64,000 nt of DNA from Cetorhinus maximus (taxonomy: Eukaryota), in contig NW_027596508.1 in assembly GCF_964194155.1 (NCBI RefSeq), forward strand, positions 186,001-250,000. The letters are read 5' to 3'. Below the pieces are notes generated by a model, which worked only from the letters and a program-made list of their open reading frames with translations, was not told the DNA's origin and did not search any database. The translations under genes were made by a program, and so were the position numbers. Position 1 is the first letter of the stretch, and every line of letters begins with the position of its first letter. Shown here one piece after another: positions 6,013 through 63,702 of the stretch.

Positions 6013-6278
6013 GATCAAAAGTAAGTTTTCCTGTGAACAAGAGAATAATTTAAACCAGTTATGGGTTAACACAGGCACAGCTGTGATTGGCTGCAACCTC
6101 CTGAGTCTGGGGAACAGACACTGTGAGCAGCTCCGGTCTCAGAAGGTTTAACAGTTACTGAGCTGGGAAACAACAACTAGTTCCAAATAATCCACAGCAC
6201 AGGCCGAGAGGAGAGGAAAGCCTGTCCTGGGAGCTGTAAATCTGAGACACAGTTTGTCCTGTCAACGTGTAGATATGA

Positions 6279-8272
6279 ACAAAAATAAAAATACCTGGAA
6301 AAACTCAGCAGGTCTGGCAGCATCTGCAGAGATGAACACAGTTAACGTTTCGAGTCCGTATGACTCTTCAACTAAGAACTAAGTAAAAACAGAAAAGAGG
6401 TGAAATATAAGCTGGTTTAAGGGAGAGGGGATGTGGGACAGGTAGAGCTGGATAGAGGGCCATTGATAGGTGGAGATAGCCAAAAAATGTCATAGACAAA
6501 AGGTCAAAGAGGTGTTGAAGGTGGTGATATTATGTAAGGAATGTGCTAATTAAGGATAGAAAGCAGGACAAGCAAGGTACAGATAGCCCTCGTGCGGGTG
6601 GGGTGAAGGGAAGGGATCGAAATAGGTTAAAAGGTAGAGATAAAACAATGGACGGAAATACATTTAAAAATAATGGAAATAGGTGGGAAAAGAAAAATCT
6701 ATATAAATTATTGGGGAATAAAAACAGGGATCGGAAAGGGGTTGGGGATGGAGGAGAGAGTTCATGATCTAAAATTGATGAACTCAATATTCATTCCAGA
6801 AGACTGTAAAGTGCCCAATCCGAAGATGAGGTGATATTGCTCCAGTTTGCGTTGAGTTTCACTGGAACAATGCAGCAGGCCAAGGACGGACATGTAGGCA
6901 TGAGAGCAGGGTGGAGTGTTGAAATGGCAAGCGACAGGGAGGTCTGGCTCATGCTTGCGGACAGACCGAAGGTATTCTGCAAAGTGGTCACCCAGTCTGC
7001 GTTTGGTCTCTCCAATGTAGAGGAAACCGCATTGGGAGCAACGAATGCAGTAAACTAAATTGAGGGAAGTGCAAGGGAAATGCTGCTTCATTTGAAAGGA
7101 ATGTTTGGGCCCTTGGATGGTGAGGAGAGGATAAGTAAAGGCGCACGTGTTGCACCTTCTGCAGTTGCATGGGAAGGCGTCGTGGGAGGGGGTTGATGGA
7201 GGAGTGGACCAGGGTGTCCCGGATGGAACGATCCCTGTGGAATGCCACCAGCGGGGGGGTGAATGGAAGATGTGTTTGGTGGTGGCATCATGCTGGAGTT
7301 GGCGAAAATGGCGGAGGCTGATCCTTTGAATGCGCAGGCTGGGGGGGTAATAAGTGAGGACAAGTGGGACCCTATCATGGTTCTGGCCGGGAGAGGAAGG
7401 TGTGAGGGTGGATGCGCGGGAGATGGGCCGGACACAGTTGAGGGCCCTGTCCACCACCGTGGGTGGAAAACCTCGGTTAAGGAAGAAGGAAGACATGTCA
7501 GAGGAACTGTTTTTGAAAGTGGCATCAGAACAGATGCGACGGAGGCGAAGGAACTGAGAGAATGGGATGGAGTCTTTACAGGAAGCGGGGTGTGAGGAGC
7601 TGTAGTCGAGGTATCTGTGGGAGTCGATAGGCTTGTGATGAATATTGGTGGACAATCTATCACCAGAAATTGAGACAGAGAGGTTAAGGAAGGGAAGGGA
7701 AGTGTCAGAGATGGACCATGTGAAAATGATGGCGGGGTGGAAATTGGAAGCAAAATTAATAAATTTTTCCAAGTCCAGAGGAGAGCATGAAGCAGCAACG
7801 AAGGAATCATCGATGTACCATAGAAAAAGTTGTGGGAGGGGACCGGAGTAGGACTGGAACAAGGAATGTTCCACATACCCCATAAAGAGACAGGCATAGC
7901 TGGGCCCCACGCGGGAACCCATAGCCAAACCTTTTATTAGGAGGAAGTGAGAGGAGTTTAAGGAGAAATTGTTCAGTGTGAGAACAAGTTCAGCCAGACG
8001 GAGGAGAGTAGTGGTGGATGGGGATTGTTCGGGCCACTGTTCGAGGAAGAAGCGGAGAGCTATCAGAACATCCTGGTTGGGGGATGGAGGTGTAGAGGGA
8101 TTGGGCGTCCATGGTGAAGAGGAGGCGTTTGGGGTCAGGGAACTAGAAATTGTTGATATGATGTAGGGTGTCAGAGGAATCACGGATGTCGGTGGGAAGG
8201 GACTGGACAAGGGGAGAGAGAATGGAGTCAAGATAGCAAGAAATGAGTTCCGTGGGGCAGGAACAGGCTGAC
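6279..8272 (-). mobile_element. Penelope-like retroelement, 5'-truncated (RT + GIY-YIG endonuclease + terminal repeat)
   Basis: ORF 6762-8231 has GLAMGS, YIDD, CRRCNTC and NLVYCIRC..LYIGET motifs, frameshifted; terminal repeat matches 15787-16327. Confidence 0.92.
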
Positions 8273-8684
8273 AGTGACATTGTATCAGCGAGAGTGTGTT
8301 GAAGGGGCGGGCGGGTTAGACTAATGTCACTGTGTTTGTGTGTCCGGCCTCAGCGCCAGGTTTCCGAGTCATTCTTGTGTAAAATCACAAGATTTCCCTG
8401 TAATTGGATCGCGCTGCTCCCCTGCTCAGCCCTGAAGAGAGAATTTAAGGCAAAGTTTTCATTTATTTCAAGATTTCAGTGGAAACACAGAGAAGAAGTC
8501 AGCGCTCGGCTGAGAGGGCGCGATCAAAGCAGCAAAGAAACGGGTTTAAATCGAAATTGCTGCATTTAATTCGGATGGAACATTCTCGACAACAAAGATT
8601 CGGATTTTGTTAACAGAAGGAAGCGAGTGTGGGAATCTGAAATGTCTAATTTGAAGTGGAATTGGGGAGTTTATGAGGAGAGAG

Positions 8685-9504: not shown

Positions 9505-9540
9505 AACCAGCCGAGCAAATTGTAAACCTCTGAACACAAA

Positions 9541-10324: not shown

Positions 10325-10645
<321 letters not shown>

Positions 10646-11878: not shown

Positions 11879-12506
11879 CTTCAGTTTCAGACACAGAAAT
11901 AAACCAAACCCCTTCCGAGCGCCGATTAAATAGACAGTCTCCCAGATCTATGTTAATGAAGGATTGGGAAAAGATGACTCTGAATGGACAGTTTAAAGGC
12001 GGAACCAGCCTCTAAGTATATAATTTCAGGATTGGATATGGAAACAGGCCAATCAGATTGTGATTTCTCGCCCCCACTCCTCCTCCCGACCCGTCATCAG
12101 CCCATTTACTTTGGTCAGGAAATACATTTTACAAAGACTCTCTCCAGCCCCAGTTCCACAGTGTTTTACTATACATCGGGGAATGTCGCCTGATTGTTTT
12201 GCGAGGGTCCGTTCTCCACAGAGAGAGACTATACGGGAAAGCGGGATGCCATCTGTAACAGAGAGCCCCTGATAATATGTGCGAGTGTGGGATTTACTCA
12301 CTCTGATACTGTGAATGAGTTTGGGATTTATTCACTGTTTGTAAGGCCGTGCTACAGTGAGAGAGTCTGGGATTCATTCTGTGCTTGTCAGTCTCTGGGA
12401 CTGAAAGTGATTGTTGCTGTCGTTCTGTGTCTGACTGTGATAGTGTTTGAGACTCATTGTGCATCTGTCAGTTAGCGGTGCCTGTGAGTGAGTGGGGCTT
12501 TCATTC

Positions 12507-15500
12507 AGCACCTCATCTTCCGACCAGGCACTTTACAGCCTTCCGAACTGAATATTGAGTTCAACAATTTTAGATCATGAACTCTCTCCTCCATCCCCAC
12601 CCCCTTTCCGATCCCCCCCCCACCTTTTTCCCCAATAATTTATATAGATTTTTCTTTTCCCACCTATTTCCATTATTTTGAAATATATTTCCATCCATTG
12701 TTTTATCTCTACCTTTTAGCCTTTTTCGATTCCTTCACCCAACCCCCACTAGGGCTATCTGTGCCTCGCTTGTCCTGCTTTCTACCCTTAATTAGCACAT
12801 TCCTTAGATAATATCACCACCTTCAACAACTCTTTGCCGTTTTGTCTGAGATATCTTTTTGTTATCTCCACCTATCACTGGATCTACTTGTCCTACCCAC
12901 GCCCCTTAATCCAGCTTATATTTCATCTCTCTTCTATTTTTACTTAGTTCTGTTGAAGGGTCATTCAGACTCGAAACGTTAACTGTGCTCCTCTCCGCAG
13001 ATGCTGCCAGACTTGCTGAGTTTTTCCAGGTATTTGTTTTGGATTTCCAGCATCCGCAGTTTTTTGCTTTTATCTTAGAGTTTAATTGACTGCCACTTCT
13101 CTTCAAGGAATGCCTACCTTGAAGAAGTTGTGCTCTTCTCTCCGACAGGATTTTCGTATCTCTCTCTTGCCTTGTTCACCTTCATTGCTTTCCATTTCTC
13201 TCCTGGTGTTTGACAAGGTGTTTACCAAAACTCGCTTCCACAGCCATATTTCCTTCCTCATTGACTGTCTCCGTCTCCGACTTACCCCATGTGGATTTCA
13301 ACTTAAGTTCCATCCCTTATGTTTCAAACCCACCCAGGATTAAAGGTATCTCCGGGACATACAACGCTCCTCGGACTGCTGTTCTCGTCGCATTCTGAGA
13401 TCTACACTCAGTGCCATGTGCCGCCATATGAACACACTTGACCTCTCCCTCCAGCAGCACCGCCGCACTCTTTTTCTAAGCTGCGCATATCCCCAGTTTC
13501 ATTTTATTCTTCGTCTCATCCGACGCTTCAACAAGAAACTTTGTCTTTTTCTTTCAGGTGCATAGGAACGCAAGCTCCAACAACTCATTGACACCAACAC
13601 CCATCCAGGACCCTCAACCGTTGCCTGTCCCTCTGTCCCTATCCCGTCTTCCAATGGCAGCCCCGGCCGTGTATTCACCATACCCCTGACCTTCCCCTCT
13701 CCGTCGCTGAACGTTCAGTGCTCAGCAAAGGACTTAATTTCAGACCCTTACGCCCTCATCTCAATGAATCTCAGGCTCGGTACGATGCTGAACTCTTCTA
13801 CCGCTGCCTTTGTCTCCGTGCTCACTTCTTTGGGCAGGGGTCCTCTCCCCATTTAATGGATCCTTTTACCTGCCTCCAATATTCTCCCTCCACCTGGATG
13901 CCTCCCTCTGGATTCTTAGCTTCTCTTGATCTTTTGATTGAGAACTGTTGGCGTAACATTAGTCGTCTCAATTTCTCTGCCCCTCTCACCCACTCTAACC
14001 TATCTCTCTCTGAACTTTCTGCACTTCGTTCTCTCAGGTCCAACTCTGACATTGTCATCAAACCCGCTGACAAGGGTGGTGCTGTTGTTGTCTGGCGCAC
14101 TGACCTCTACCTCACAGAGGCTGAGCATCAACTCAAAGACACTTCCTCCTACCACACTTGGACTATGACCCCACCACTGAACATCAAGCCAGTGTTTCCA
14201 GGACTGTTACTGACCTCATCTCCTCTGGAGATCTTCCTTCCACAGCTTCCAACCTGATAGTCTCCCAAACTCAGATGGCCCGCTTCTACCTCCTACCCAA
14301 AATCCACAAACAGGACTGTCCCGGCACACCGATCATGTCAGCCTGTTCCTGCCCCACGGAACTCATTTCGTGCTATCTTGGCTCCATTCTCTCTCCCCTT
14401 TTCCAATCCATTCCCACCTACACCCGTCATTCCTCTGACACCCTACCTCATATCAACAATTTCCAGTTCCCTGGCCCCAACCGCCTCCTCTTCACCATGG
14501 ACGTCCAATCCCTCTACACCTCCATCTCCCACCAGGATGGTCTGATGGCTCTCAACTTCTTCCTCAAACAGAGGCCTGAACAATCCCCATCCACCACTGC
14601 TCTCCTCCGTCTGGCTGAACTTGTTCTCACACTGAACAATTTCTCCTTAAACTCCTCTCACATCCTCCAAATAAAAGGTGTGGCTACGGTTACCCGCGTG
14701 GGCCCCGGCTATGCCTGTCTCTTTATGGGGTATGTGGAACATTCTTTGTTCCAGTCCTACTCCGGTCCCCTCCCACAAGTCTTTCTCCGGCACATCGATG
14801 ATCAGTTCGGTGCTGCTTCATGCTCTCATCTGGACCTGGAAAATTTATTAATTTTGCTTCCAATTTCCACCCCTCCATCATTTTCACATGGTCCATCTCT
14901 AACACTTCCCTTCCCTTCCTTGACCTCTCTGTCTCAATTTCTGGTGATAGACTGTCCACCAATATTCATTAGAAGCCTACCAACTCCCACAGCTACCTCG
15001 CCTACAGCTCCTCACACCCCGCTTCCTGTAAGGACTCCATCCTATTCTCTCAGTTCCTTCGCCACTGTCGCATCTGTTCTGATGATGCCACTTTCAAAAA
15101 CAGTTCCTCTGACATGTCTTCCTTCTTCCTTAACCAAGGTTTTCCACCCACGGTGGTTGACAGGGCCCTCAGCCGTGTCCGGCCCATCTCCCGCGCATCC
15201 GCCCTCACACCTTCCTCTCCCTCCCAGAACGATGATAGGGTCCCCCTTGTCCTCACTTATCACCCCACCAGCCTCTGCATTCAAAGGATCATCCTCTGCC
15301 ATTTCCGCCAACTCCAGCATGATGCCACCACCAAACACATCTTCCCTTCACCCCCCCTGGCGGTATTCCGCAGGGATCGTTCCCTCTGGGGCACCCTGGT
15401 CCACTCCTCCATCACCCCCTACGCTTCAACCCCAACCTATGGCACCTTCCCATGCAACCGCAGAAGGTGCAATACCTGCCCCTTCACTTCCCCTCTCCTC

Positions 15501-16327
15501 ACTGTCCAAGGGCCCAAACACTCCTTTCAAGTGAAGCAGCATTTCACTTGCACTTCCCTCAATTTAGTCTACTGCATTCGTTGCTCCCAATGCGGTTTCC
15601 TCAACATTGGAGAGACCAAACGCAGACTGGGTGAGCGCATTGCAGAACACCTTTGGTCTGTCCGCAAGCATTACCCAGACCTCCCTGTCGCTTGCCATTT
15701 CAACATTCCACCCGGCTTTCATGCCCACATGTCCGTCCTTGGCCTGCTGCATTGTTCCAGTGAAGCTCAACACAAACTGGAGGAACAGCACCTCATTTTC
15801 TGACTAGGCACTTTACAGCCTTCCGGACTGAATATTGAGTTCAACTATTTTAGATCATGAACTCTCTCCTCCATCCCCACTCCCTTTCCGATCCCCCCCC
15901 TTTTTTCCCAATAATTTATATAGACTTTTCATTTCCCACCTATTTCCATTATTTTTAAATATATTTCCATCCATTGTTTTATCTCTACATTTTAGCCTTT
16001 TTCGATTCCTTCCCCCCACCCCCACTAGGGCTATCTGTACCTTGCTTGTCCTGCTTTCTACCCTTAATTAGCACATTCCTTAGATAATATCACCGCCTTC
16101 AACACCTCTTTGTCCTTTTGTCTGTGACATCTTTCGGTTATCTCCACCTATCACTGGCTCTACTTGTGTCCCCCCCCGCCCCCCCACCTTAAACCAGCTT
16201 ATATTTCACCTCTCTTCTATTTTTACTTAGTTCTGTTGAAGGGTCATTCGGACTCGAAACGCTAACTGTGTTCCTCTCCGCAGATGCTGCCAGACTTGCT
16301 GAGTTTTTCCAGGTATTTTTGTTTTTG
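12507..16327 (+). mobile_element. Near full-length Penelope-like element with direct pseudo-LTRs (~12507-13075 and ~15787-16327), decayed
   Basis: IKPADKG, FYLLPKIHK, TMDVQSLYT, HIDD and GIY-YIG motifs across frameshifted ORFs; candidate TSD TTTCATTC at 12499-12506 and 16328-16335. Confidence 0.93.
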
Positions 16328-16339
16328 TTTCATTCTCTC

Positions 16340-33689: not shown

Positions 33690-33906
33690 CCAAAAACAAC
33701 CAAAAAAATGACTCAGTAGGCTAGACAGCATCTGTGGAGAGAAATACAGAGTTAACATTATGAGTCAGTCTGACTCTTCTTCAGCTCTGAAGAACAGTCA
33801 TACGGACTCGAAACGTTAATCCTGTCTTTCTCTCCGCAAATGCAGTCAGACCAGCATTTTTTGTTTTTGTTTCAGATTTCTCGCATCCGCAGTATTTTGC
33901 CTTTAT
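33690..33906. mobile_element. Palindromic non-autonomous Penelope-derived element
   Basis: Two inverted pLTR ends meeting at TGACTCTTCTTCAG-CT-CTGAAGAACAGTCA. Confidence 0.78.
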
Positions 33907-34381
33907 CTCACAAACTGTTCCACAGACTGAGATACAGAATGAATCCTACACTCAGAGACACTACCTGTGACTGACAGATACAGAACAAATCTCGCTCACA
34001 TACAGTAACAGAGTCTGATGGATATGATATGTATCCCACAATCACATTCACGACCAGAGGCTAATTAATACAATTTAGATTTGACAACTGTCCAGTTGTG
34101 GCATATCACAATTTTCACATAGGAAATGGGAAATTCTAAACATAACACGAGGCATCATAACACGAATGGGGGACATTATGATACCAGGAAGAAAATATTT
34201 ACCCACAAAAACGTCTTCAAAGATCAACAGGTAATATCTTCGGACAACAGGGGATGCCTTCTGATCAGGTCACATTTTACAGAATGGAGAAGAAAAAAAG
34301 TACAAGAGGGATCGTATTTATACAGCCTGGAACAGATTTGCATGACAGGAAAGTATTTTACACAACAGAGAATATCTCTCA

Positions 34382-35301: not shown

Positions 35302-35373
35302 AGCAGAGTTGCGCAGCGGAAGCGTGCTGGGCCCATAACCCAGAGGTCAATGGATCGAAACCATTCTCTGCTA
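35302..35373 (+). tRNA. tRNA-iMet (CAT), variant, possibly functional
   Basis: 72 nt, 3 differences from the vertebrate initiator tRNA as recalled; A1:U72, three G:C pairs in the anticodon stem, GATCGAAA T-loop, T-tract downstream. Confidence 0.88.
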
Positions 35374-41117: not shown

Positions 41118-43084
41118 AGCTGCCCCTTTCAGCATCTGGCACTGAACGTGTGTTGAGAATTATTGTCTATCTGTCAGTCTCTGTCATTCAGTATATGTGA
41201 CTGAGTATGGGATTCATTATATAACATTCAGTCTCTGGGATTGTTTACGTTTTGATTCATTCGGTGCAAATTTTCAGCTCAGTTACAGGCCACTGATGTG
41301 GTAGCTATTAAGCAAGCAATGTTTGTAAGTTATGGCCCATGTTAAATGTCTGTCACTGTGAACACATTTGTGAAAGATAATGTATCTTTCAACCTGCTAC
41401 TCGCTTGGGATGCGGGCGTAACTCAGGTTATACTGATCGATTTGATCTGTGACACTCAGTCTGATTCTGAGTAAGAATTTTGATATGGATGTAAAATGGA
41501 GATCAGTCTGGAACTGGCACAGTATTCTCAATCTGACATTGAACATTTAGGATTAGTATGAAAGTTACAGCTCAGTTCATACTCATCGAATTGATATTGT
41601 ATCTTTTTGTTTCATAAAACTGGAATTAAGGTTTGTATCTCAGGTTATACTTGCTTTCAGAATATCTCGCTCTGATAATGTACTTGAGTTTTGGATTTGC
41701 ATCTAATGTATATGTCAGGACAGAGAATGGGAATTGACACTGCAATTTATAAACCCGTGATGTGTGCAAATATTGGACTGGTACTTCACATGAATCTCAG
41801 AGTATATTATTCAGGTTAATTCGGTAAACTTGAAACTGACACCGTTGTCTCCGTTTTATCTGATATTTAAATGTTGATATGGAAACAGCGTCTGTCTCTC
41901 CTGCGCTGTTTGATTGATGGATTGAAAATATCACACTGGAACTGATGACCTGCCTGTGTCTCTATGCCGTGTCAGTTATAAAGTACGTACTGTGTGAGAG
42001 GAGCTGGCGGGAATCTTCATTCTAACTTGGCTGGTGGAAACATCACAATTATTCCGGTGCCTTCATTTATTTGCCTGTATATTTTAGAATATAGAGTATA
42101 TTTTTGAACTCAAGTGCAACTGAGGTTGAAGACACCGATTCCTTTAGATTAATCTGTCTATTAATAATCATTATGAACGGGTTGAGAGGCTGTAGCTCTA
42201 ATTGGATACCCTGTTCTCAATCAAATTCCTAACCAATCGGACAGCCAGGGAGAAGAAATTGGAAGTTTGCATTGGCTTACATTTTCAAATTCGAAATGCC
42301 CGCCGATTTCAGTACAGGAAAAATACAAAATAACTGAACGCCAGTTTGAATGTGTTAGTCTCTTATCTGTAACCGGCGGTAATAAGACCCCGTTCAGCAA
42401 TTTAAATCAGCTCAAATCAGTGGAAAAGCAAAAACGTATAGATTACCAAACAACTCCTTCACACAGACTTCACGGGGATTGAGAAATGCGGCTGATTTCT
42501 GATCCTCTCCATTAAAAGCGGCCGGGAATGTTACAACAGGGAGTGCGGAAAGAATCCCCGACACCAAACCGCCTGGGACAGGCAGCTTTGTGTCCGGAGA
42601 ATAGGGAGACCGGGGGGAGGGGGGAAGGGGACGGGTGCAGATCTGAAACCGCAGAAATGGACTCAGGTTCTGTGAGTGCTCAACTCTCACTGATTCCGGC
42701 CTCTGGGAAAACTGCGGAATAAACAGATCAGCCCGAACATGTCCGCTCCGTTTCCGAGTTTACTCTGTTCCTGGAGCGGCGCTCAGATCACCCGAGAGTA
42801 AAAACAAAGCATTTAATGCACCAGTCGTGACATTTTTCATAGTTTTCATGAATGTACCGGGACAAACTCGATATTTATGACTATTAAATATTTATGAAAA
42901 TGTCGACTTTGACTCTGTCTTTCAATTCTTCAGTTCATTAAAGCGGAAGATGTGGGAGCAGAGAAACAGCGCAATGCAGAGAGGGGACTAAAAACACAAG
43001 TAAACAAATCAGAAACAGATAAATCCACCGTTACAATAACTCCATCTCCTGACAGTGAGCAGCCCTTTCAATGATCCTGTGAGT

Positions 43085-43100
43085 GGCTCTGAAAAGAGCC
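43085..43100 (-). terminator. Histone 3' stem-loop of H2A
   Basis: Reverse complement GGCTCTTTTCAGAGCC. Confidence 0.96.
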
Positions 43101-43130
43101 TTTGGGTTATTAGATTAAAGAATGGCCGCT

Positions 43131-43532
<402 letters not shown>

Positions 43533-44411
43533 TCACAAACACTTTCACAGTGAATGAGGAAATCCCCTCAGATTCTCTTCTCTTATAGCTTCGGGAGGAA
43601 TGGTGCTGCGGGCATTGCTGATTGGTCACTTTGTGCTGCGTCTCATAATGTTATTCATATCACCAATCAGATATCTACTGAACTCACCAATCCGGAGACT
43701 CCACGGAGTGAGGGCGGAAAATAACGGCGCCAAATTTTGATATTTCAACCGATCTTTTTTCAAATTTTAAAAGCCCGCTAAATTTTTAAAAATAAATGAA
43801 AAAGAACGGACTTCTTAGAACATAGTACGAATTGGAAGTTTTAAAAATACGCGTCCCTGATGGGACTATTTCACATTTTATCCCATGTTCCAAATCGCTT
43901 TTACAATCCGTGATCCGGGGGTCAATCTCGATCCTTTGTGAAACCCTGTCAGCAGCCGCAGAAAGTCCCATTTACATCGTTCTGCAAACGGACGGTATAT
44001 TGTAGATATTTATGACAGACAAAACTGACCATTTTTGCCAGCGTTGAGACTGAAGGTTGCTGCACAACCGGGGCTGATAGGAAATGAACTGATCAATGAT
44101 TGAGACCAAACTCGACTAGAACTGGAAACTGACGCATTTGCTTCTATTCTCTCTCTCTCCAAAACCAGGGAAAGGGGCCAAATATTAACGCGTCTTAAAA
44201 GAAAGCGCCGAGGGTGATCGGCAAGTCATTAATTGATGAGGCATTATTAACCTGACTCAATAATTGAACGAGGGTTAAATCTACATCACCGAGAATCGCT
44301 GTGATTGAAACAAAAAGAAAATAACAATTTGATAATTCAAAATTCTTCACAGTAAAAATCATAACTTTAGAAGTGGAGCAATCGTATAGCTTTTTCAGAG
44401 AGATTGTGGGT

Positions 44412-44427
44412 GGCTCTTAAAAGAGCC
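44412..44427 (-). terminator. Histone 3' stem-loop of H2B
   Basis: Reverse complement GGCTCTTTTAAGAGCC. Confidence 0.96.
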
Positions 44428-44464
44428 GTTGTGTTTCTGGTGTTTTTCAGTGCATTGTGGGGTT

Positions 44465-44842
44465 TTACTTGGAGCTGGTGTACTTGGTCACCGCCTTTGT
44501 CCCTTCCGACACGGCGTGCTTGGCCAGTTCCCCGGGCAGCAGCAGGCGCACGGCGGTCTGGATCTCCCGGGAGCTGATGGTGCTGCGCTTGTTGTAATGG
44601 GCCAGGCGGGAAGCCTCACCCGCGATGCGCTCGAAAATATCGCTCACGAACGAGTTCATGATGCTCATGGCCTTGGAGGAGATGCCGGTGTCGGGGTGAA
44701 CCTGCTTCATCACTTTGTAGATGTAGATGGAGTAACTCTCCTTCCTCGACTTTCGCCGCTTCTTGCCGCCCTTTCCTGCCGGTTTACTCACCGCTTTCTT
44801 GGCGCCCTTCTTAGCAACTGGTTTCTTCTTCTCTTCAGCCAT
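44465..44842 (-). CDS. H2B: Histone H2B (125 aa, starts MAEEKKKPV)
   Basis: H2B fold to KYTSSK; true ATG at 44842 lies downstream of TATA and the octamer-like ATTAGCAT (44920-44927). Confidence 0.98.
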
Positions 44843-47599
44843 CTTCAATCTCAATTTCAGACACAGAAATAAACCAAATCCCTTCCGTCCGCTCATTATA
44901 TAGACAGTATGACAGATATATGCTAATGAGGAATGGGGGAGACAATGATTCTGATTGGACATTTTTAAAACTAAACACGTCATCTATTTTTGTGATTTTC
45001 CGTATGGATTGTACAATAGACCAATTATATTTAGCTTTCTCCACCAATCATAAGCATCCTTACTACAATCAGGAAATACATTTTACAAAGCCCCTCTCCA
45101 GCCGGAGTTTCTCAGTGTGCAAAGATACACCGGGAAATGGCGCCTGGCTGTCGCTGCGAGGGACTGTATAGGAATGTGGGATTCCTTCAGGAAATGTGAG
45201 ACTCTGGTAATGTGCGTGATTTACTCACTGTCTGATGCTGTGTGTGAGTGTGGGGTTCCTTCACTGTTTGGAAGGCCGTGGTACAGAGTGCGAGGCCTGG
45301 ATTTATTCTGTATCTGTGACTTGATGGGACCATGTCTCAATGTTGGATTCATTTGATATCCTGAGGCTCATTGTGCATCTGTCCGTTATTGGTGCATGTA
45401 AGTGAAATAATTCGCTTCTTGGGACTACACGCCAGTGCGAAATTAAATCAGTATGTGTTTCTCTCCGCCACGAAAATTATTGGATTTATTCTGTACCTGT
45501 CAGTCTCTGTAACTGTATGTTAATGATTTTTTTTATTTGTCAGTCTCTGGCATTGTAGGTCAGAGTTGTATTGATTCGATGTCTTTCAGTCTGTGGTACT
45601 ATCTCTGAGTCTGAACTTCTCATTCACTGTCAATGTCTGATAATGTGTGTGAATGTGAGATAAACTCTGTACCTGTCAACATCCGTTGCTGAATAGGAGT
45701 GTGAAATTCAGTCTGTATCGGTCAGTCTCTGGTACTGATTCAGAGAGTGTGATTCATTCTCAACAGCCCCATCTGTTGCAATTTTTGACAGAAGTAATCC
45801 CACTGTCACTTACAGCACCAAAGAGTGTTAAATGTTGAATTTGCCTCAATGGATAGTATTGGATATGAGTGAGATCAATTCTCTCTCAATCAGTGGCACT
45901 GTATGGGAGCTTGCAATTAATTTTGTTTCTGTTGGACTCTGGTACCCTGTGTAAGCGTTGATGCCTTTTTGTAACTCAGTGCCTGATGTCTTCAGAAATC
46001 AAGGATTCATTTTGTCTCTATCAGTCCTTGGCTCTGAGATTCCTCTGTGTTTCTTAGTCTGTGGCATTGTGTGAATGTCAGATACATCCTGAATCTCTAC
46101 ATCTCTGGGATAATTTGAGAATCACCCCGTATCTATCAGTCAATGTGCTTTGTGTGATGTGGGATTCATTCTGTCTCTGTCACTCTCTGGCACTGTGGTG
46201 AATGTGGGATTTTTTTTTAATGTATATCTTTCAATCTCCAGTACATTGTGACTGTGGAATTCATTCTGTTTCTGATAGTCTCTGGCATGGTGTGCATACT
46301 GGGATTCATTCTGTGTTAGTCTCTTTTTTATTGTGCATGTATTGGTCTTCATACTGTATGTCTCAGTGTCTGGTGTTGTGTAAGATTTGCTGAGTAGTCT
46401 CTGGTGCTGTATTTTTTTTTATTCATGTGATCTGGGCTTTGGTGGCTGGACCGGCATTTATTGCCCATCCCTTGTTGCCCTTGAGAAGGTGGTGGTGAGC
46501 TGCCTTCTTGAACCGTTGCAGTACATGTGTTGTGGGTGCACCCACAGTGCTGTTAGGAAGGGAGTTCCAGGATTCTGACCCAGCAACAGTGAAGGAAGAG
46601 TGATATAATTCCAATTCAGGATGGTGAGTGACTTGACTGTATGTGAAAGAGACAGTTATTGTTTAGTTCTCAGTCTTTGATGCTGCATGTGACTCTGGGA
46701 TTGATTGTGTATCTGTATGTCATATTTATCTCAGAAATAGTGTTCAAAATGCTAAGTTTAACACCTTCAAATATTTAGGAAAGTAGATTTATCATCCCCA
46801 TCCTTACCTGGTCTGGCTTATATTGGATCCTAGGACCAAGAACAGCAATGAAGTTGACTCTGAACTGCCATCTACAATTGCCGAGTAAACCACTCAGTTG
46901 TATTCAAAAAGGCAGCGCACCAACATGTGAGTTTGTGTTTGATGTGAGTTTGTGACCATCTTTCATTGTCAGTGGTAATTTATGTCTGTGTCAGATAAAT
47001 GGAATATTATTCAGACTCAGGAATTTTGAGTGTAGTATTTAGTATGTATCTGTCAGTTTCTGGTACTGGACATGTCGTTGAGAATCATTCTGAATCTGTC
47101 AGTCTCTGCTACTCTGACAGTGTGGGATTCATTGCATAACCTTCAGTTTCTGAGACTGTTTACAAGTCTAGGTTCAGTCCATGTTGAAATTTCAGAACAA
47201 AAACAGGCCATTGATGCTGTAGGTTTTAATAAAGTAATTGAGTTTGACCTAGTATTAAATCCCTTTGTGTGTGAACACACTTATGAAAGCTCAGGTATCT
47301 TTGGATCTAATACTCCATTGCTGTGTAAGTGTAATTCACTTTGTAATAATCAAATTGATACATTTTTATTTAAGCAGACTGTGAGAATTTTAAACTTGCC
47401 TGTTGTGCTCAGTTTGCTCTGTGAGACTGAATACAGTATCTGCCATTCTGATACTCTGAGCTTTTCAGACTGATATGTGTTCTCTATCTCAGTCTGTACT
47501 AATCAAATTGTTATTGTATCCTTGAGGTTAATGGTCTAGGTGAGTTTCAAACTGGAATCTGAGTTTGCAGCTGAGGTTATACTATATTTCAATGGCATT

Positions 47600-48758
47600 T
47601 CAACACTCCACCCTGCTCTCATGCCCACATGTCCATCCTTGGCCTGTTGCATTGTTCCAGTGAAGCTCAACACAAACTGGAGGAACAGCACCTCATCTTC
47701 CAACTAGGCACTTTACAGCCTTCCGGACTGAACATGGAGTTCAACAATTTTAGATCATGAACTCTCTCCTCCATTCCCACCCCCTTTCCGATTCCCCTTT
47801 TTTCCAATAATTTATATAGATTTTTCTTTTCCCAACTATTTCCATTATTTTTAAAAGTATTTCCATCCATTGTTTTATCTCTACCTGTTAGCCTATTTCG
47901 ATCCCTTCACCACCACCCCACCGCACTAGGGCGATCTGTACCTTGCTCGCCCTGCTTTCTACCCTTAATGTCACCTATTAGCACATTTCTTAGACAATAT
48001 CAACGCCTTCAACACCTCTTTGTCCTTTTGTCTATGACATCTTTTGGCTATCTCCTCCTATCACTGACCCTCTAACCAGCTCTACTTGTCCCACCCCCCT
48101 CAACCAGCTTCTCTTTCACCTCTTTTCTATTTTTCCTTAGTTCTGTTGAAGAGTCGTACGGACTCGAAACGTTAAGTGTGTTCCTCTCCAAAGATGCTGT
48201 CAGACCTGCTGAGTTTTTCCAGGTATTTTTATTTTTGTTCTGGATTTCCAGCATCCGCAGTTTTTTGCTTTTATCCAAGGCCTTTCTGTTGTTTGCCGGC
48301 CCTTAAGGCTGTGCAAGGTTCATCTGGTAACCTTTAACTGCCAATGTGCTTGGAGATTTTAAGTAATTCATTCCCTTTCAATAAGTTCTTACTGTACCCC
48401 TAGATTCCCCCTAATAATTATTGTAACCCTTTATTTCCCCCTAACATCCCAGTTAACACATCCTTTAGATAATATCACTACCGCCAACACCCCATTGTCC
48501 TTTTGTCTATGACATCTTTGGCAATCTCTTCTTGGCCTCCACCTATCACTGGCCCCCTATCGAGCTCTACCCTGTCCCACCCCCTCAACCAGCTTATATT
48601 TCATCTCATTTCTCTATTTTTTAGTTCTGATGAAGGGTCATATGGACTCGAAACGTCAACTGTATCCCTCTCCGCAGATGCTGTCAGACCTGCTGAGTTT
48701 TTCCAGGTATTTTTGTTTTTGTTCTAGATTTCCAGCATCCGCAGTATTTTGCTTTTAT
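47600..48758 (+). mobile_element. Two tandem Penelope terminal-repeat units (~47600-48275, ~48450-48758)
   Basis: Both match the pLTR and end TTTTGCTTTTAT. Confidence 0.85.
48623..48661 (+). ncRNA. Minimal type I hammerhead ribozyme motif
   Basis: AGTT-CTGATGA-A-GGGTC-ATATG-GACTC-GAAA-C-GTC-AACT. Confidence 0.7.
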
Positions 48759-51700
48759 CAGAAATGTTCATTGTTGCTTTGTGGAGAGAAAGCAGCAATG
48801 ATTTTCAATAACAGCTTCTTGCCATTCTGTCTCCCTCCTCCCAGGAGGCTGCTGTTTGTTCCCTTCCCCCGGGAGCGGGATCTCTCCATTGGCGGCTGTT
48901 TGAAACCATCTTCTTCCAGTCCCAGGCAGAGCTGGGGGAGAGCAGCGCATCACTGCCTTTAACAAACACTTGGATCTGCACTGAGCTGCTGGGACCTACA
49001 GGACTCACGGAGCAAGAGCTGGAAAGTGACGTGAGGCTGGATCAAACTATTTTGGGGCTGGTGCAGACACGATGGGCCGAATGTCCTCGTTCTGTGCTGG
49101 ATATGTTCAATATTTGTGTTTACGGAACTTGTGCAGCATTCTGCGCATGCGCGCTGCCTTCCCCAGCACTGCCTGTGAGTGGAAGAAGATGGTTTAAAAC
49201 AGCCGCTAATGCAGAGACACATTTTAAACGGCGGCTGTTTGCTTTCACTTGAACGGTTAGTCCATGGGAGCGGCAATTAGAAATCTGACCTACACAATAG
49301 TCCCTGCTCCGTCACTCAGTCCCACTCCTGGAGCAGTGGATTGTTTCTGGATGGCAGGAAATTGTTGTAACAGGAACAAAGTCCCTGGTCTTTAGCAGCT
49401 GAGTGCTGCAGGACTGCAGTGGATTCAGACACTGACTCTGTTCGTCTTACCTTTTTTATTCATTCACGGGATGTGGGCTTCACTGGCTGGGCCAGCATTT
49501 ATTGCCCATCCCGAGTTGCCCTTGGGAAGGTGGTGGTGAGCTGCCTTCTTGAACCACTGACTTTGCGGTTGTTCGGAATGATTATTAATTTAATAATTGT
49601 TTTGGTTTCTTTGTATCTTCGACCTCACCTCTTCTTAAATTATAATAAACATTTTTTCTTTCGATAGGCAAATACTTGAAAGCAGCAGAATAAATGTCGT
49701 GATTCGACAACACAAGGGGAAGTGCAGTCAGCTCCTCACACACAGTAAGTACAGTGTCACTCACAGGGAGCCGAGGTGGCCAAGAGGTTAACTTGGTGGA
49801 GTTCTGATCCATTGTACTCTGCAATCAGAGGCACCAGATCCAATTTTAGTTTATGGTTCACTAGGCTGGTTGGTGAAGATTTAATTTAAATTGGCAGGGG
49901 GTTGGTCATCAACTTACAGCAGAACCAGAAAGTAATAAGGACAGAAAGGAGGGAGAGTGATGGATAATACTGGAGAAGGGAGCAATGCCATATTCGACAG
50001 GGGCAGTTTAAGAAGCCCTATGAGGAATGCAAAGACCAGTTTACAATGCATCTATGTAAACACACAGTGTGATAAATGAGACTGATGAGCTTGAAGGACA
50101 AACGGCAATGTGGGAATATGATGTAGTGGCAATGAACGAAATGGGGTTTAAAAAGAGGAAGGACTGGGTGCTGAGTATTTAGAAATATGGATTCAGAAAA
50201 AGATCGAGAAGCAAAAAGTGGAGGTGATGGTGGCAGCATTGATCAGGGAATCAGTCTTAGCTGCAATTATATTATTACCAGATAAAACTGAAAAATACAA
50301 ACTCAGATTCTAGTTTGAAACTCACCCACATTATTAAACTAAGGGATACTGTATTAAAATGATTAATACAGATTGAGATACAAATCACAGAGCAATCCGA
50401 AAAACCCAGTGTCAGACTGATAGATGTTGTATTAATTCTATCACTGCAAACTGAGCTCAACAGCCAAGTTTAAAATTCTCACTCAGAAACAGATTGAATG
50501 ACACAGCGTTAATTTGATTAGTAGAAACTGAGTTACACTGGCATAACAATGGAGTTTCACATTAAAAAAATTACACAAAACGGGATTTCATATAAGGCCA
50601 AACTTGCAATTATTCCATTAAACCAAGAATATCAATTGCTTATTCCTGTACTGAAATTTCAACATGAAATGAATCTAGACTGGTAAACAATCCAAAAGAT
50701 TGCAGGTGATGTAATGAATCCCACACTGTCACAGGGTAGCAGAGACTGACAGATTCAGAATCATTATTGAGCAGATGTCCATTACCAGACACTGACAGAT
50801 GCAGACTGTTACTACACTCACCCACAATACCTGAGCCCACATGACACTAATCAATCTGACACACACATACGGTATCAGTGAAAGTCAGAAATTATCACAA
50901 ATACACATGGAATGACACAGACACAGAGACGATTAAAGAACGCTACTTACAGTCTGATTTTCAGATTTGCACACAAGACGACTGAACTGTCTTAACATAA
51001 TCTAGATAATCCCATGTTCAGACCCAGTAGCACTCCTGACAGAAACATAAATTCCACATTCATATGCAGCACCAGAGTTTGACAGAAGAATAATCAAGCG
51101 CACCTAAACTTGCACGCACATGCACATTCGCACAGTATTACTGTCATAGCACACAATGAGGTTCAGCCCTTTGAGTCTACATCAGGCCTTCAAATGAGTA
51201 AAACATCTAGTGTCATTTCCAACAACCCGGCACATTCTTCCTTTTCAGATAATAATCCAATTCTCTCCTGACTACCTTGATTGCATCTGCCTCTAGCAGT
51301 GTCAGGACCCATATGTGAGATTTTAACCACTCGCTGCATGAAAACGTTTCTCCAAAAAGTATCCATTGCTTTTGTCAATTACCTTAAATCTGTGCTCTCT
51401 GGTCTTTGTCCCATCCAGTAGTTGGAACAGTTTTTCTCAATCTGGTGTGTCCAGACTCATCATAATTTTGAATACCTCTATCCTGTCCTCTCAATCTTCA
51501 CTCCTCTGAGGAAAATGGCCACTACTTCATCAACTAAGTAACTGAAGTTCCTTATTCTTCACAATGTGGCTCACTTACACATGCTAGAGGCTACATATAT
51601 TCACGTGCAGGGCCCTGTTATCTGCAGGCAAAAGGAACACGTCCATTGTGCCTACCTTGAATTAAACAACAACATTCAGGACAATAGTTTCCCAGTGAAT

Positions 51701-56298: not shown

Positions 56299-57640
56299 TC
56301 ACCCCCACATTCCCGTCTGCCCCCGATAGCCTTTCACCCCCTTGCTAATCGACAATCCATGCAGCTCTACCATTAAAATATTCAAAGACTCTGCGTCCAC
56401 TGCCTTTTGAGGAAGAGAGTTCCAAGATTCACTGCGCTCAGAGAAATAAATTCTCCTCATCAATGTCTTAAATGAGTGACCCCTTATTTTTAAATAATGA
56501 CCCCCTAGTTCTAGCTTCTCCCACAAGAGGAAACATCATCTCCACATCCATCCTGTTAAGACTCCTCAGGGTCTTAAAGGTTTCAATCTAATCCCCTCTT
56601 ACTCTTCTAAATTCCAGTCACAAAGATAGGCTAACCGGTCCAATCTTTCTTCATAAGACAACCGACCCATTCCTGGTATTAGACTAATAAATATTCCCTG
56701 AACTGCTTCAAACACATTTAAATCAAAAACAGAATTACCTGGAAAAACTCAGCAGGTCTGGCAGCATCGGCGGAGAAGAAAAGAGTTGACGTTTCGAGTC
56801 CTCATGACCCTTCAGCAGAACTGAGTATAGTTAGGAGAGGGGTGAAATATAAGCTGGTTTAAGTTTGGGGGTGGGGGGGTGGTGGTGGAAAGAGAAGTTG
56901 ACGGGGGGTGATGGTGGTTGTAGGGACAAGCAAGCAGTGATGGGAGCAGATAATCAAAAGATGTCACAGACAAAAGGATCAAAGAGGTGTTGAAGTTGGT
57001 GATATTATCTAAGAAAATGTGCTAATTAAGAATGGATGGCAGGACACTCAAGGTACAACTCTAGTGGGGGTGGAGTGGAAAGACTGACAAGGTATTAGTT
57101 GTAGAAAGGCTAACTGGCCTTTAGCTTTCTAATTTCTGTCTCCCTCCCTTTTTGAATGAAAGAGTTACGTTCGCTATTTTCCAATCTAATTGAACCTTCC
57201 CCATATCTGGGGAATTTTGAAAATTAAAACAAATGCACCAACAATCTCACCGGCCACTTCTTTTAAGAATTTGGGGTGAAATCCATCCAGACCTGGGGAT
57301 TTCACAGCCCGATGCCCCAACAATTTTCTTAATACCACTTCCCTGGTGATTGTAATTTTCCACGAGTTCCTCCCTCCCTTCCATTTCCTGATTTACAGCT
57401 TTTTCCAAGGTATTACTTGTGTCGTCTATGGTGAAGACTGAAGCACGATACCTGTTTAGTTCATCCGCCATCTCCCTATTTTGCATTTTCAATTCCCAAA
57501 ATGCTCTTTCTATAGGACTAATTCATTTCTTATTTAAACATCTACATAACCTCCCTTTGGAATTGTTGGTTCTGATTGGAATGCATGCGTTTTGTGTATT
57601 CTGAAATATCCCTTTAAATATCTGCCACTGCCTATCCCTC
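56299..57640 (-). mobile_element. CR1 fragments flanking a PLE repeat
   Basis: WNSLPQKAV and MADELNRY..SVFT motifs. Confidence 0.7.
56722..57075 (-). mobile_element. Penelope terminal-repeat fragment
   Basis: Reverse-complement pLTR with CTGCTGA-A-GGGTC..GACTC-GAAAC-GTC-AACT. Confidence 0.8.
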
Positions 57641-57970: not shown

Positions 57971-59089
57971 TGACTGACTGAAGTAATCTCACATTCAGCA
58001 CTGAAGACAAACAGATGCAGAATATGTTCAAAAGATTCCCAGATATTGACAATGACTCACATTCCCATTCAATACCAGAAACTGACAGATACAGACTGAA
58101 TTCCACACTCACATTGCGGATCAGATGTTGGCATGTCCAGCATGAATCTCACACTCATACTCAGTCCCAGCCTCTGAGAGTGAATGAGAAATGCACAGTC
58201 GGATAGTAACAGAGGTTGAAAGATATACAATCAATGCCACACTGATCTACAGTGTCAGAGACTGAGAAACACGGTGTGAATCTCATTTGTAGTTCAATAA
58301 ACTGACAGGTAGAGAATAAATCCTGCACTCACATATTTAAGCCGCAGGTGACAGATACGGAGTTCAGCCAAAATAGCATATATTCCCAAATCGAGAATGG
58401 ATCCCCCGCTCACTCACATGCATCCTGAAGTGACAAACGCACAATGAGTCTTAAACACTCCCAAAGACAGATACAGAATAAATTCTACACTCACATGGCG
58501 TACCAGAGCCTCAGCTGTGGCTCAGTTCATAGCACCCTCGCCTTTGAGTCAGAAGGTAGTGGGTTCATGTCCCACTCCTGGAAAAAAAAAAGTCAAGAAC
58601 TGTGAATGTACTCAGAGTTACATAGTTGTTGGGAAAGATTTATTCCAGACCACACAGCTCAATACTCCTTCTCAACCCCCTACCACTCACATACTCACAC
58701 AATATCCCAGTGAGTAATTCGCACACGTTACAAGAGTTCCAGGAGGAATCCCGCATTTCCGTTCAGTCCCTCTGTGGAGAAGGGCCCCTCGCACGGACAA
58801 CCAGACGACAATTTCCGGTGTATCTTCACAAACTGGGACTGGAGAGAATCCTGATAAAATTTCTTTCCTGATTATAGTAAAAGGGCTAATGAGGGTGGAG
58901 AAGTCGAAATTTGATTGGTGTCTTTAAATATGCAATCAGAGAAAAGTATAAAATAAGTGGCTGTTGTACTTTTTTAAATGTCCAATCAGAATCATTGTTT
59001 CCCCATTCCTCATTAGCATAGGTCTGTCAGACTGTCTATTTAATCGGCGCTCGGAAGGGATTTGCTTTATTCTGTGCCTGAAACTGAAG

Positions 59090-59464
59090 ATGGTTGATGA
59101 CAAGAAACCAGCTTCTAAGAAGGGAGGCAAGAAAGCCTTAAAGAAACCGGTAGCGAAGGGCGGCAAGAAGCGGCGAAAGTCGAGGAAGGAGAGTTACGCC
59201 ATCTACATCTACAAAGTGATGAAGCAGGTTCACCCCGACACCGGCATCTCCTCCAAGGCCATGAGCATCATGAACTCGTTCGTGAGCGATATTTTCGAGC
59301 GCATCGCGGGTGAGGCTTCCCGCCTGGCCCATTACAACAAGCGCAGCACCATCAGCTCCCGGGAGATCCAGACCGCCGTGCGCCTGCTGCTGCCCGGGGA
59401 ACTGGCCAAGCACGCCGTGTCGGAAGGGACAAAGGCGGTGACCAAGTACACCAGCTCCAAGTAA
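59090..59464 (+). CDS. H2B: Histone H2B (124 aa, starts MVDDKKPAS)
   Basis: H2B fold; CCAAT at 58982, octamer-like CTCATTAGCAT ending 59019, TATTTAA ~59038. Confidence 0.98.
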
Positions 59465-59503
59465 AACCCCAGAACTGACTGAAAAACACATTCACAACAC
59501 AAC

Positions 59504-59519
59504 GGCTCTTTTAAGAGCC
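59504..59519 (+). terminator. Histone 3' stem-loop of H2B
   Basis: GGCTCTTTTAAGAGCC. Confidence 0.96.
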
Positions 59520-60780
59520 ACTCACAATCTCTCTGAAAAAGCTATATGATTTCATTACTTCTAATTTATGATTTTACTATGAAGCATTTAGAATTGTGAA
59601 ATTTTTATTTTGATCACGTTTCAGTCACAGGTTCTCGGCAATGTAAATTTAACACTCGTTCAATTGTTGGGCCTCGTTAATGATGCCCCATAAATTAATG
59701 TCTTGCCGCTCACCCTCTGCGCTTTGCTTTAAGACGCGTCATATTCGACCCCTTTCCCTGGTTTTGGAGTGCGCGCGAATAGAGCGCAAATTCTTCTGGT
59801 TCCAATTCGGTTCAAGTTTGGCCTCAATAATCGATCAGTTCATTTCCTATAAGCACCGGTTGTGTAGCAACCTTCAGTCTCAACGCTAGCAAATTTACTC
59901 CAAGTATGTTTAATTTTGGCTGTCACAAATATCTACAATATACCGTCTATCAGCAGAACGATGTAAATGGCACTTTCAGCCGGCTGCTAAGAAGGTTTCA
60001 TGACGGATCGAGATTACCTCGAATTGCTGCCGGATTCTTAAAGCGAATCTGAAATTTAAAATGGATAAAATGTGAAATAGTCCCATCAGGGAAGGACATT
60101 TGTAAAACTTTGTCGTCAGACCGTGTTCACTATTAACTGGTTTTCTATATGAAATGTATTTCTTGTTTTACAAATATATCGGCGGTAATTTCGACGTCGA
60201 ATAAAAAAATAGATTGCGTAAATTTGCGCCGTTATTTTCGACTTGTTTTCAGATACACATAAACCCAGACAGAAAATCAGAAACTGAAATATACAAAAAA
60301 CTGCAGTCCAGGGAAAGAGAGAGAGAGATGAAGAGAATGTTACATTCGAATACTAAATACTGAATAACCATTTTCAATTAGTACTCGAAACGTCAACTTT
60401 CTTCCTCTCCGATGAGCTTTTCCAGGTATTTTTGTTTTAGTTTCAGATTTCCAGCATCAGCAGTATTTTGCTTTTATCCAATTAGTACTGTGTTCGATCA
60501 GTTCTTTTTTGGCTTTTTTTTTTTACAAATTTGGCGGGCTTTTAAAATTTGAAAAAAAAGCTCGGTTGGAATCTCAAAATTTGGCGCTGGATTTTCCGCC
60601 CTCCCTCCGTGGAGTCTCCGGGTTGGTGAGTTCAGTAGATATCTGATTGGTGATATGAACAACATTATGTGACGCTGCACAAAATGACCTATCAGCAATG
60701 CCCGCCGCACCATTCCTCCCGAAGCTATAAGAGAAGCGAATGCGAGCGCATTTCCTCATTCACTGTGAAAGTGTTTTTGA

Positions 60781-61182
<402 letters not shown>

Positions 61183-61212
61183 AGCGGCCATTCTTTAATC
61201 TAATACCCCAAA

Positions 61213-61228
61213 GGCTCTTTTCAGAGCC
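61213..61228 (+). terminator. Histone 3' stem-loop of H2A
   Basis: GGCTCTTTTCAGAGCC then ACCCA. Confidence 0.96.
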
Positions 61229-61947
61229 ACCCACAGAGTCTGTGAAAGGGTGAACTATTGACTACCGCTACGTGCCGAATTTCAGTAATGGTGAAGCGTT
61301 TCTAATGATCCGCAACGACAACCAACTCGTATCAAAAGAGAAATTACATTTCCACCCGAGTGGTTCGGGACTGGAATGCACTCCCTGGAAGTAGTGGAGG
61401 CAGGTTCAATAGAGGCAGTCAAGAGGGTATTAGCTGATTATTTGAATATAAACAACGTGCAGGGATGGGGCGGGGTGAAAGCTTTCGGTCATAACACTCT
61501 TTTGGAGAGCAGATGCAGGCACCGAAGGGCCGAATGGCCTCCCGTGCTGTGCAAATTGGTTGATTCTATGATAAATCTGTGCACCGGAGGGATACACGTT
61601 TGTTGCTCAGGGCGTTGCCTTTATTGACTTCATGAGCACTGACTTGTAACCCGCAGATCACTCTTTGCCCGGGATTGATGTCTGCTCGCAGTATTTAATA
61701 CATTATCAGCGCCGCATTTATTGGAAGTATCCTAGAGCACTAAGGTGACCACATTCCCAATTTTATGCTTAAATTAAGACACCATTTGCGCTACAACTTA
61801 CAACTGCATTGTCTGTGATTATCAACCCCAAAAGAGGTTTGTAGACAAGAAAAAATAAACTGATGGAAGGAGGTAAATGGTAACTTCGCGATGTCTAAGT
61901 GCTGGAGTGGTCAACAGGAGATCACAGCTTTCATTTGCCGATTTAGT

Positions 61948-61963
61948 GGCTCTTAAAAGAGCC
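61948..61963 (-). terminator. Histone 3' stem-loop of H3
   Basis: Reverse complement GGCTCTTTTAAGAGCC. Confidence 0.96.
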
Positions 61964-61992
61964 TTTGTTGCACTTGGTGCTGAAGCCTGGTT

Positions 61993-62427
<435 letters not shown>

Positions 62428-63331
62428 TCAGCTGCAAGAACTATTAAGACAAACTGCACTGCAACTCGCCTTTTTAAACTCTGTGAGGAACCGCCCCGAA
62501 CAGTAATTGGCTGCAGCCTTCCGCCCAGGCAGTTTTATCCAAAATCTAACCAATGAACTAATCCCTGGCTGAGTTGCCAGGTCTCCATTGGTCGAGTAGT
62601 TTTTAATCGCTCATTTCAAAAATTCCGCCTTTATTTCCAGCCGTTTACCGCCTCGACATCAGAAGACTTTGTTCCTTCATTTCTTAAAATTATAAATACC
62701 ATTTTTACTGCAAATCATTATTCCCTAACCCGAATGAAATTCCTGTTCATTAAACCTATTCCGACAATTTTTAAACCCGGCATCATCCTGGTGAACCTGC
62801 ACATTTTTGGACAGAAACACCAGTCTGTTGTTTGAACTGTGTAAAGTCAGTGCTGGATTTCCGAGGCAAAAATTGAAGGACTGTCCATTGCTCCCTACAG
62901 CACAACCAACCCTTAAAATCGCCGCTCGCTTAGAGGTCTGGAGTGGGTAATAAAATGGAACCGGTGCTGGGGGCTTCACACCCCTTCCCATTGCCCTCAT
63001 TCTGGGCAGTTCATGACTATAAAGAGCGGGGAAAGGGATAATAAACAACGATTAAATCGAGTTACTTAGTACATCCTCCAGAACCCCGGAACAAATCAGG
63101 CACTAATATAAATGAAAAATACTGCACATGCTGGAAATCTGAATTAAAAACAGAAAATGCTGGAAACCTCCGTAGGTCTCACAGAATCTGTGGATAGAAA
63201 AGAGTTAGCGTTTCTAATCCGTTTCACTCTTCGTTAGAGCTCTCTTTTCTGTTTCAGACAGTAACATTCCCGATCACAGCCAATCCCAATTCCCGTTCCC
63301 AGGTCTCTGCTCTCTCTGTGAGGTGGTGGGT

Positions 63332-63347
63332 GGCTCTGAGAAGAGCC
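63332..63347 (-). terminator. Histone 3' stem-loop of H4
   Basis: Reverse complement GGCTCTTCTCAGAGCC. Confidence 0.96.
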
Positions 63348-63381
63348 TTTGTTGTGTGTTCGGTAGAAAGGGTCGAGTTGT

Positions 63382-63702
<321 letters not shown>

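Follow-up and report, generated by a model that had tools for sequence, protein, structure and literature searches.

The locus and its Penelope-like elements

The window, i.e., the whole stretch of 64,000 nucleotides analysed here, is animal DNA with a histone gene cluster, in which five histone 3' stem-loops and a tRNA were recognised with Rfam. The histone genes H1, H4, H2A, H2B and H3 lie at 8767-10645, 43060-45162 and 58786-63645, the H2B segments 44000-45162 and 58786-59938 being inverted paralogs (83%), and the tRNA gene (35302-35373, Rfam 54.3 bits) has a CAT anticodon. Two 3' ends of Penelope-like elements (PLEs), called copies A and B, follow each other on the forward strand at a distance of 177 bp (interval 48276-48452), and each of them includes a hammerhead motif, named after its copy (Table 1). 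This A-spacer-B locus is enclosed by inverted paralogous segments, 46942-47567 and 50298-50908, which are 72% alike and built of degenerate units of about 46 nt. A MITE-like inverted repeat is found at 48881-49217, with arms of 60-68 nt that are 88% complementary and about 217 nt apart, and its left part has a paralog at 1768-1938.

Table 1. Positions of the PLE copies, hammerhead motifs, core variants and spacer in the window.
Feature	Position	Strand	Description
E2, 5'-truncated PLE	6277..8315	-	517-aa open stretch: C-part of RT, CX4CxxC linker, GIY-YIG with CCHH-type residues
E1, near full-length PLE, partial tandem	12506..16329	+	upstream pLTR and tail 12506-13074, RT and GIY-YIG frames, 3' pLTR
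Copy A, 5'-truncated PLE end	47596..48275	+	last 54 GIY-YIG codons, 3' pseudo-LTR, tail; 680 nt
Motif A, degenerate minimal hammerhead	48139..48177	+	core CUGUUGA (U6), G.G mismatch in stem I, GUU site after 48173
PLE tail of copy A, 36 nt	48240..48275	+	E1 and E2 end at the equivalent of 48239-40
Spacer, fragment of an unrelated mid-abundance repeat	48273..48446		contigs of three organisms
Copy B, shorter and more diverged 5'-truncated PLE end	48453..48759	+	307 nt, own 36-nt tail 48724-48759
Motif B, intact minimal type I hammerhead	48623..48661	+	core CUGAUGA plus A, GUC site after 48657
U6 cores	12950-12956 and 16233-16239 (E1), about 6367-6375 (-) (E2), 48143-48149 (A)		from the sequence
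C6 core, copy at 56.8 kb	56812-56818	-	from the sequence

Over 663 nt, copy A shares 85.8-87.0% identity with the 3' ends of E1 and E2, the two long PLEs of the window, and its reading frame stops at a TGA at 47758-60. Contigs from 4 of 24 runs (the DNA of three organisms and one presumed RNA run) were placed on 47300-49100 and, among the loose ends listed, contigs of the family depart from the locus before 47596 in three of these four runs. Copy B is 82.6% identical to A over 310 columns (BLAST). The two repeats of the original prediction are both PLE ends, as it had held, but unequal ones, since A spans 680 nt and includes the end of a frame whereas B spans 307 nt. Family contigs diverge behind 48275, 48723 and 48758-59, and the latter two end points are, by contig placement, 36 nt apart. 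An optional tail of 30-40 bp has been described for PLEs (PMC8557442), and in an anole PLE it lies between two start sites of reverse transcription (PMC11167929). The 36-nt tail found here is this optional tail and, by analogy, may be provided with a second start site.

The carrier family could be recognised from the two long elements. E1 has an 8-bp TSD at its exact ends and U6 in both of its hammerheads, and its RT and GIY-YIG frames are broken by stops and frameshifts. The frame of E2, an element 89.5% identical to E1 over 2017 nt, carries YIDD, gives Atlas matches of 0.96 to clusters with RVT_1, HTH_animal and GIY-YIG, and contains a linker zinc finger of the form CX2-5CxxC, a mark of Neptune that is shared with Nematis. 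The features of EN+ PLEs are all present, namely RT followed by GIY-YIG with CCHH residues, pseudo-LTRs (pLTRs) in partial tandem, 5' truncation and the optional tail, and the hammerhead lies within the terminal repeat of an element with RT and GIY-YIG. Judging by these frames, the carrier is an endonuclease-bearing PLE, which the linker zinc finger assigns to a Neptune- or Nematis-type. Pfam gave no family for four of four PLE frames (the scan covered 7 of 26 long frames in the window), the PDB sequence search with the PLE frames gave one meaningless match at E 4.6, and DNA patterns of the family had no matches in metagenome, genome and viral contigs. At 788-993, 33711-33907 and 30370-30803, two oppositely oriented PLE ends each time form a fold-back stub, an inverted-copy pattern that is known for PLEs. 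The Endonuclease/exonuclease/phosphatase frame of a LINE fragment (5376-6014, reverse strand) adjoins E2.

Two unequal hammerhead motifs

The structure proposed for motif B, with its stems, core, extra A, GUC triplet and cleavage after 48657, was recovered pair by pair. Stem I is formed by AGTT (48623-26) and AACT (48658-61), and a U.G pair lengthens it to five pairs; the core CTGATGA (48627-33) is followed by the extra A (48634); stem II, GGGTC/GACTC, has five pairs including one G.U; GAAA (48650-53), the palindrome ACGT (48653-56) and C17 (48657) follow. With a structural descriptor of the minimal type I hammerhead, motif B was the sole strict match on both strands of the 64-kb window, and none was obtained in 100 block-wise dinucleotide shuffles of it. 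When position 6 was left free and stem I was set at four pairs, three matches (12950, 48627 and 56818) were obtained, again with none in the shuffles. All the hallmarks of PLE minimal hammerheads are found in motif B, i.e., CUGANGA with an extra base, a stem II opening with G-C, GAAA, the palindrome, an NUH site and a short stem I, and it agrees letter for letter with the PLE consensus in Fig. S3 of PMC4209133. From its sequence, motif B is a textbook minimal hammerhead of PLEs, a kind that would cleave itself as a dimer or with protein, and a trace of cutting at 48657 may take place.

The Rfam search that had been suggested as a check was run, and neither motif matched a hammerhead family in it: no such family was among the six matches of the whole window at the gathering score or among the eight weak matches of 47500-49000 with E up to 10, and 48600-48700 gave no match at all. 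This result has to be set beside the 2014 PLE paper, in which a descriptor of its own was needed for minimal hammerheads (PMC4209133). The minimum-energy fold of both 39-mers is not the hammerhead; stem II alone is formed (z -1.58 and -1.07).

Motif A consists of CTGTTGA (48143-49, U6), stem II GAGTC/GACTC and GAAAC-GTT, with N17 at 48173, and the separation of 484 nt given for the two cleavage sites (48173 and 48657) was found as such. Its non-canonical position 6 had been noted correctly, whereas a G.G mismatch (48140/48176) in its four-pair stem I had been overlooked. Hence, the intact core and stem I of a PLE minimal hammerhead are lacking in motif A (U6, G.G), which passes the descriptor only with stem I shortened to two pairs. 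Because position 48176 is C in about 99% of the contig depth in four of four runs, the mismatch is private to copy A. That the motifs are minimal hammerheads of PLE terminal repeats, of the dimer-dependent kind, is in line with the match of both copies to the 3' ends of E1 and E2 and with the fit of motif B to the consensus, so this part of the original prediction stands.

Position 6 of the core was then compared across the family. The window holds 15 pLTR-like segments, ten of which cover the core, with U6 in four, C6 in one and A6 in five; among the A6 copies, B alone is otherwise intact. The carriers of U6 are A, both pLTRs of E1, and E2, the latter after a 2-nt insertion. Stem II still pairs where it varies, by way of G.U and A-U pairs, and most copies have retained stem I, GAAA and the palindrome. 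Among the variant rows listed (40 of 215) none falls on 48146, which fits, but does not prove, a common U6. Since both long PLEs of the window carry U6, this base is, on the present comparison of copies, a lineage trait and not a decay of copy A. In Fig. S3 of PMC4209133, 56 of 56 motifs have A6, a base that the descriptor used there demanded. The change from A6 to C lowered the rates by orders of magnitude in Mg2+ in one ribozyme (PMC7151607), and the natural A6C hammerhead of phage Bcep176 cleaved at less than 0.1 per minute in Mg2+ (PMC3088659); A6C is weak in Mg2+ and active in Mn2+. The literature searched, in which few subscription journals were covered, yielded papers on A6C and no activity assay of U6, which is a weak negative. 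The effect of U6 is presumably like that of A6C. Because hammerhead mutants of an anole PLE still inserted in vitro, cleavage being dispensable there (PMC11167929), a loss of hammerhead activity in a spreading PLE lineage is plausible. The presence of U6 in both long elements would mean either that the lineage moved without a working ribozyme or that U6 is tolerated. A lineage mobile without a working ribozyme would bear on the question of whether PLEs require their hammerheads.

Lacking a helix III that can be closed, a minimal hammerhead depends on dimer formation for its fold, and even intact minimal dimers cleave poorly (PMC4209133); of the Xenopus dimer elements tested, eight of nine showed no cleavage. 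In a dimer of A and B the strands are swapped: the GUC site of B is served by the U6 core of A with a perfect stem I, the GUU site of A is served by the canonical core of B through the stem I with the G.G mismatch, and the palindromic helix III is able to pair between the two. As both cuts are needed for the 484-nt RNA and both active sites are impaired, these pairings make its release unlikely, and the A-B pair is probably inactive as a catalyst. A constrained A-B dimer fold lay 16-24 kcal/mol above the minimum-energy fold, a value that was computed without an active-dimer control and is given no weight. The 484-nt circle folds no better than its shuffles (z -0.49, 51% paired, 16 of 60 shuffles as good). 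Some contigs contain forward or backward jumps of about 485 nt, and these are found in DNA runs too. The backward joint from 48613 to 48128 lies in the register of the A/B homology, occurs also in a DNA run and is matched by forward skips, and it is therefore regarded as a mapping effect of single copies on two similar repeats. A joint at the cleavage sites, 48657 to 48174, is absent from the joints listed (15 of 586).

The spacer and the relation between the two copies

The interval between the repeats had been described as non-PLE sequence, and this was borne out: the spacer shows no significant likeness to the PLEs of the window. Its origin as internal PLE sequence was rejected, local alignment scores to eight of eight targets being no better than those of shuffles. 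Its origin as single-copy DNA was rejected too, contig depth on the spacer being 11-34 times the flank median in three of three DNA runs. Contig depth is not copy number, and unitigs break at repeat borders, so only large ratios are used here. Summed contig depth on PLE bins was 130-209 times that on spacer bins in three of three DNA runs, and a variant at 48403 is common to 54, 63 and 40 contigs in these runs. Of the pieces listed (32 of 307,410), seven match parts of 48273-48446 with 12-20 differences. Three of them stop matching at 48273-75 and three at 48446, and their continuations on the two sides, of up to 346 and 219 nt, belong to neither A nor B. The repeat begins exactly at the 3' end of A, with a 3-letter overlap; at 48446, where it has an end, the minus strand reads TG, which would suit an LTR. 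The rest of the element is absent beside A and B, and hence a deletion must be assumed.

At the spacer-B junction (48451), the depth amounted to 416, 334 and 636, i.e., 3-7% of the spacer depth and at or below flank level. From this junction depth, together with the contigs running into other DNA, the spacer is recognised as part of a third repeat, whose copies seldom adjoin a PLE end. Since contigs of all three organisms span the junction, at about flank depth, the composite is old, and it may have been multiplied along with the adjoining DNA. In the flanks, contigs with few differences (47300-47543 and 48764-49007) reach a depth of 120-310, versus 5-15 for many other listed pieces, a hint, depth not being copy number, that the whole segment is repeated in these genomes. 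In the presumed RNA run (X15), no contig spans 48451 and the spacer depth comes from variant copies; such contigs show presence only and are no evidence against transcription.

Identity over aligned columns was 85.7% between A and B, 90.8% between A and either E1 or E2, and 92.3% between the two pLTRs of E1. An alignment of six copies shows 26 changes private to B, which also has a 10-nt insertion, and 9 private to A; derived sites common to A and B number three, those common to A and E2 four, and those common to A and c57 (the copy at 56.8 kb) four. The tree unites the pLTRs of E1 (support 0.95) and places A beside E2 (0.79) rather than B, and B has A6/C17 versus U6/U17 in A. The search for a common word of at least five letters at the ends was negative for A, B, A..B and A plus spacer, and the 7-letter word obtained for spacer plus B lies inside the tail of A and 14 bp off the end of B. 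The counter-evidence named beforehand, TSDs marking two independent insertions around a single-copy spacer, was thus encountered in neither part, for there is no TSD around A, B or the pair and the spacer is repetitive. As neither A nor B has a TSD singly, their independence rests on divergence, tails and junction depth. Each copy is closed by a full tail of its own, as expected of separate insertions. Hence, A and B are, by this comparison, separate truncated insertions and not sister copies.

Origin of the layout and comparison with known systems

In the reading that we favour, with a probability of roughly 0.85, two independent 5'-truncated PLE insertions flank a fragment of a third repeat inside the histone gene cluster, and the layout is accidental. 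The PLE protein would nick the DNA, and its reverse transcription would begin close to the pLTR end, at either of two sites separated by 36 nt; two such sites have been shown for an anole PLE, and here they are suggested by the two end points of the family. Early termination would leave a short 3' piece always containing the hammerhead, about 100 nt inside the end. Copy B would have kept the canonical core, while copy A would come from the U6 lineage and would later have gained its stem I mismatch. The motifs would be passengers, and a read-through RNA would need both of them to fold as one dimer. We infer the order of the insertions and the deletion of the remaining spacer element as parts of this history.

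According to the original prediction, a transcript could instead excise a 484-nt retrozyme unit, and this was not supported: there is no tandem array, A and B are separate insertions, no TSD lies round the pair (or round either copy), the spacer is another repeat, both active sites are defective and the circle has no special structure. A-spacer-B would then be the dimer of a non-autonomous unit, a non-LTR retrozyme, from which two cuts release a 484-nt monomer that circularises and is re-inserted by the PLE enzyme. Both motifs indeed lie on one strand, 484 nt apart and within the 51-972 bp range of vertebrate retrozyme families; pLTRs are the source of retrozymes, which are also on record for a chondrichthyan; helix III, being palindromic, allows A and B to pair, the spacer is repetitive, and contig joints going back about 485 nt occur. 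Yet head-to-tail units are missing, Tandem Repeats Finder having found in 47000-49500 a 21-bp unit only and no array with a period of about 484 nt, and one complete hammerhead stands where the published definition asks for two. Copies of the spacer are mostly not joined to PLE ends, which speaks against a multi-copy unit as far as contig depth, an indirect measure, can tell; the circle is not highly self-paired, and the backward joint is a mapping effect with no counterpart at the cleavage sites among the joints listed. TSDs are optional for non-LTR retrozymes (PMC7229834). On balance, such an origin is very unlikely. That the motifs are chance look-alikes without ribozyme ancestry has a negligible probability: the missing Rfam hammerhead match and the minimum-energy folds would suit it, but the empty shuffles, the exact agreement with the PLE consensus, also as regards the position within the pLTR, and the pairing of stem II kept through variants, with stem I, GAAA and palindrome persisting in most copies, argue against it.

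The position of A and B on the same strand, 177 bp apart, the start of the spacer repeat exactly at the 3' end of A, the absence of its remainder from both flanks and the three derived sites common to A and B would also be consistent with a single complex insertion or a local duplication, in which A and B arose together via template switching of the PLE enzyme through an RNA of the third repeat, or with a later rearrangement, followed by decay. We consider such a single event unlikely, because B has its own 26 changes and 10-nt insertion, A resembles E1 and E2 more than it does B, A and B differ at positions 6 and 17, and no TSD surrounds the pair. It is quite unlikely, too, that CUGUUGA remained a cleaving core, in the dimer or assisted by the PLE protein, while the less diverged lineage (E1, E2 and A) spread, A-spacer-B being a nascent retrozyme. 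If so, U6 would be a new natural form of the core, overlooked wherever a descriptor insists on A6. Read-through transcripts could then be cut by the core of A at the site of B, and the composite, travelling within an amplified segment of the histone cluster, would represent an incipient retrozyme. Under the accidental layout preferred here, the locus carries a caution for genome scans. Hammerheads in PLE ends have been known since 2014, and PLE ends are so common that pairs often lie a few hundred bases apart; two hammerheads on one strand do not amount to a retrozyme unless the unit occurs in tandem or as a family.

With the animal non-LTR retrozymes, as described by Cervera and De la Pena (2020, PMC7229834) and Li et al. 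(bioRxiv 10.64898/2026.07.22.740005), the locus has in common two type I hammerheads on the same strand a few hundred bases apart, pLTR-derived sequence and an interval without coding capacity. Unlike those retrozymes, it has no head-to-tail units, one complete motif, a spacer from another repeat, no self-paired circle, no TSD and no sign of a unit family. The core position changed in the phage Bcep176 A6C hammerhead is the one changed here, to C6 in the copy at 56.8 kb and to U6 in A, E1 and E2. The 56 motifs of Fig. S3 in PMC4209133, which include no cartilaginous fish, all have A6, unlike the family of this window with U6 in four and C6 in one of ten cores. The anole element PAc (Frangieh et al., 2024, PMC11167929) is a Poseidon element whose frame begins inside the hammerhead, unlike the elements found here. 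In the remaining features, the motifs resemble the PLE minimal hammerheads of Cervera and De la Pena (2014, PMC4209133), with a U-rich leader, a short stem I, CUGANGA plus an extra base, a stem II opening with G-C, GAAA, a palindromic 15.2-16.2 and an NUH site, and like them they occur where truncated PLEs have their 3' ends as well as in each pLTR of a long element. Similarly, the order of RT, CX2-5CxxC linker and GIY-YIG is that of the Neptune and Nematis EN+ PLEs (Craig et al., 2021, PMC8557442), and 5' truncation, partial tandems, a tail of 30-40 bp (36 nt here) and a hammerhead inside the pLTR are shared with the elements of PMC8557442 and PMC11167929.
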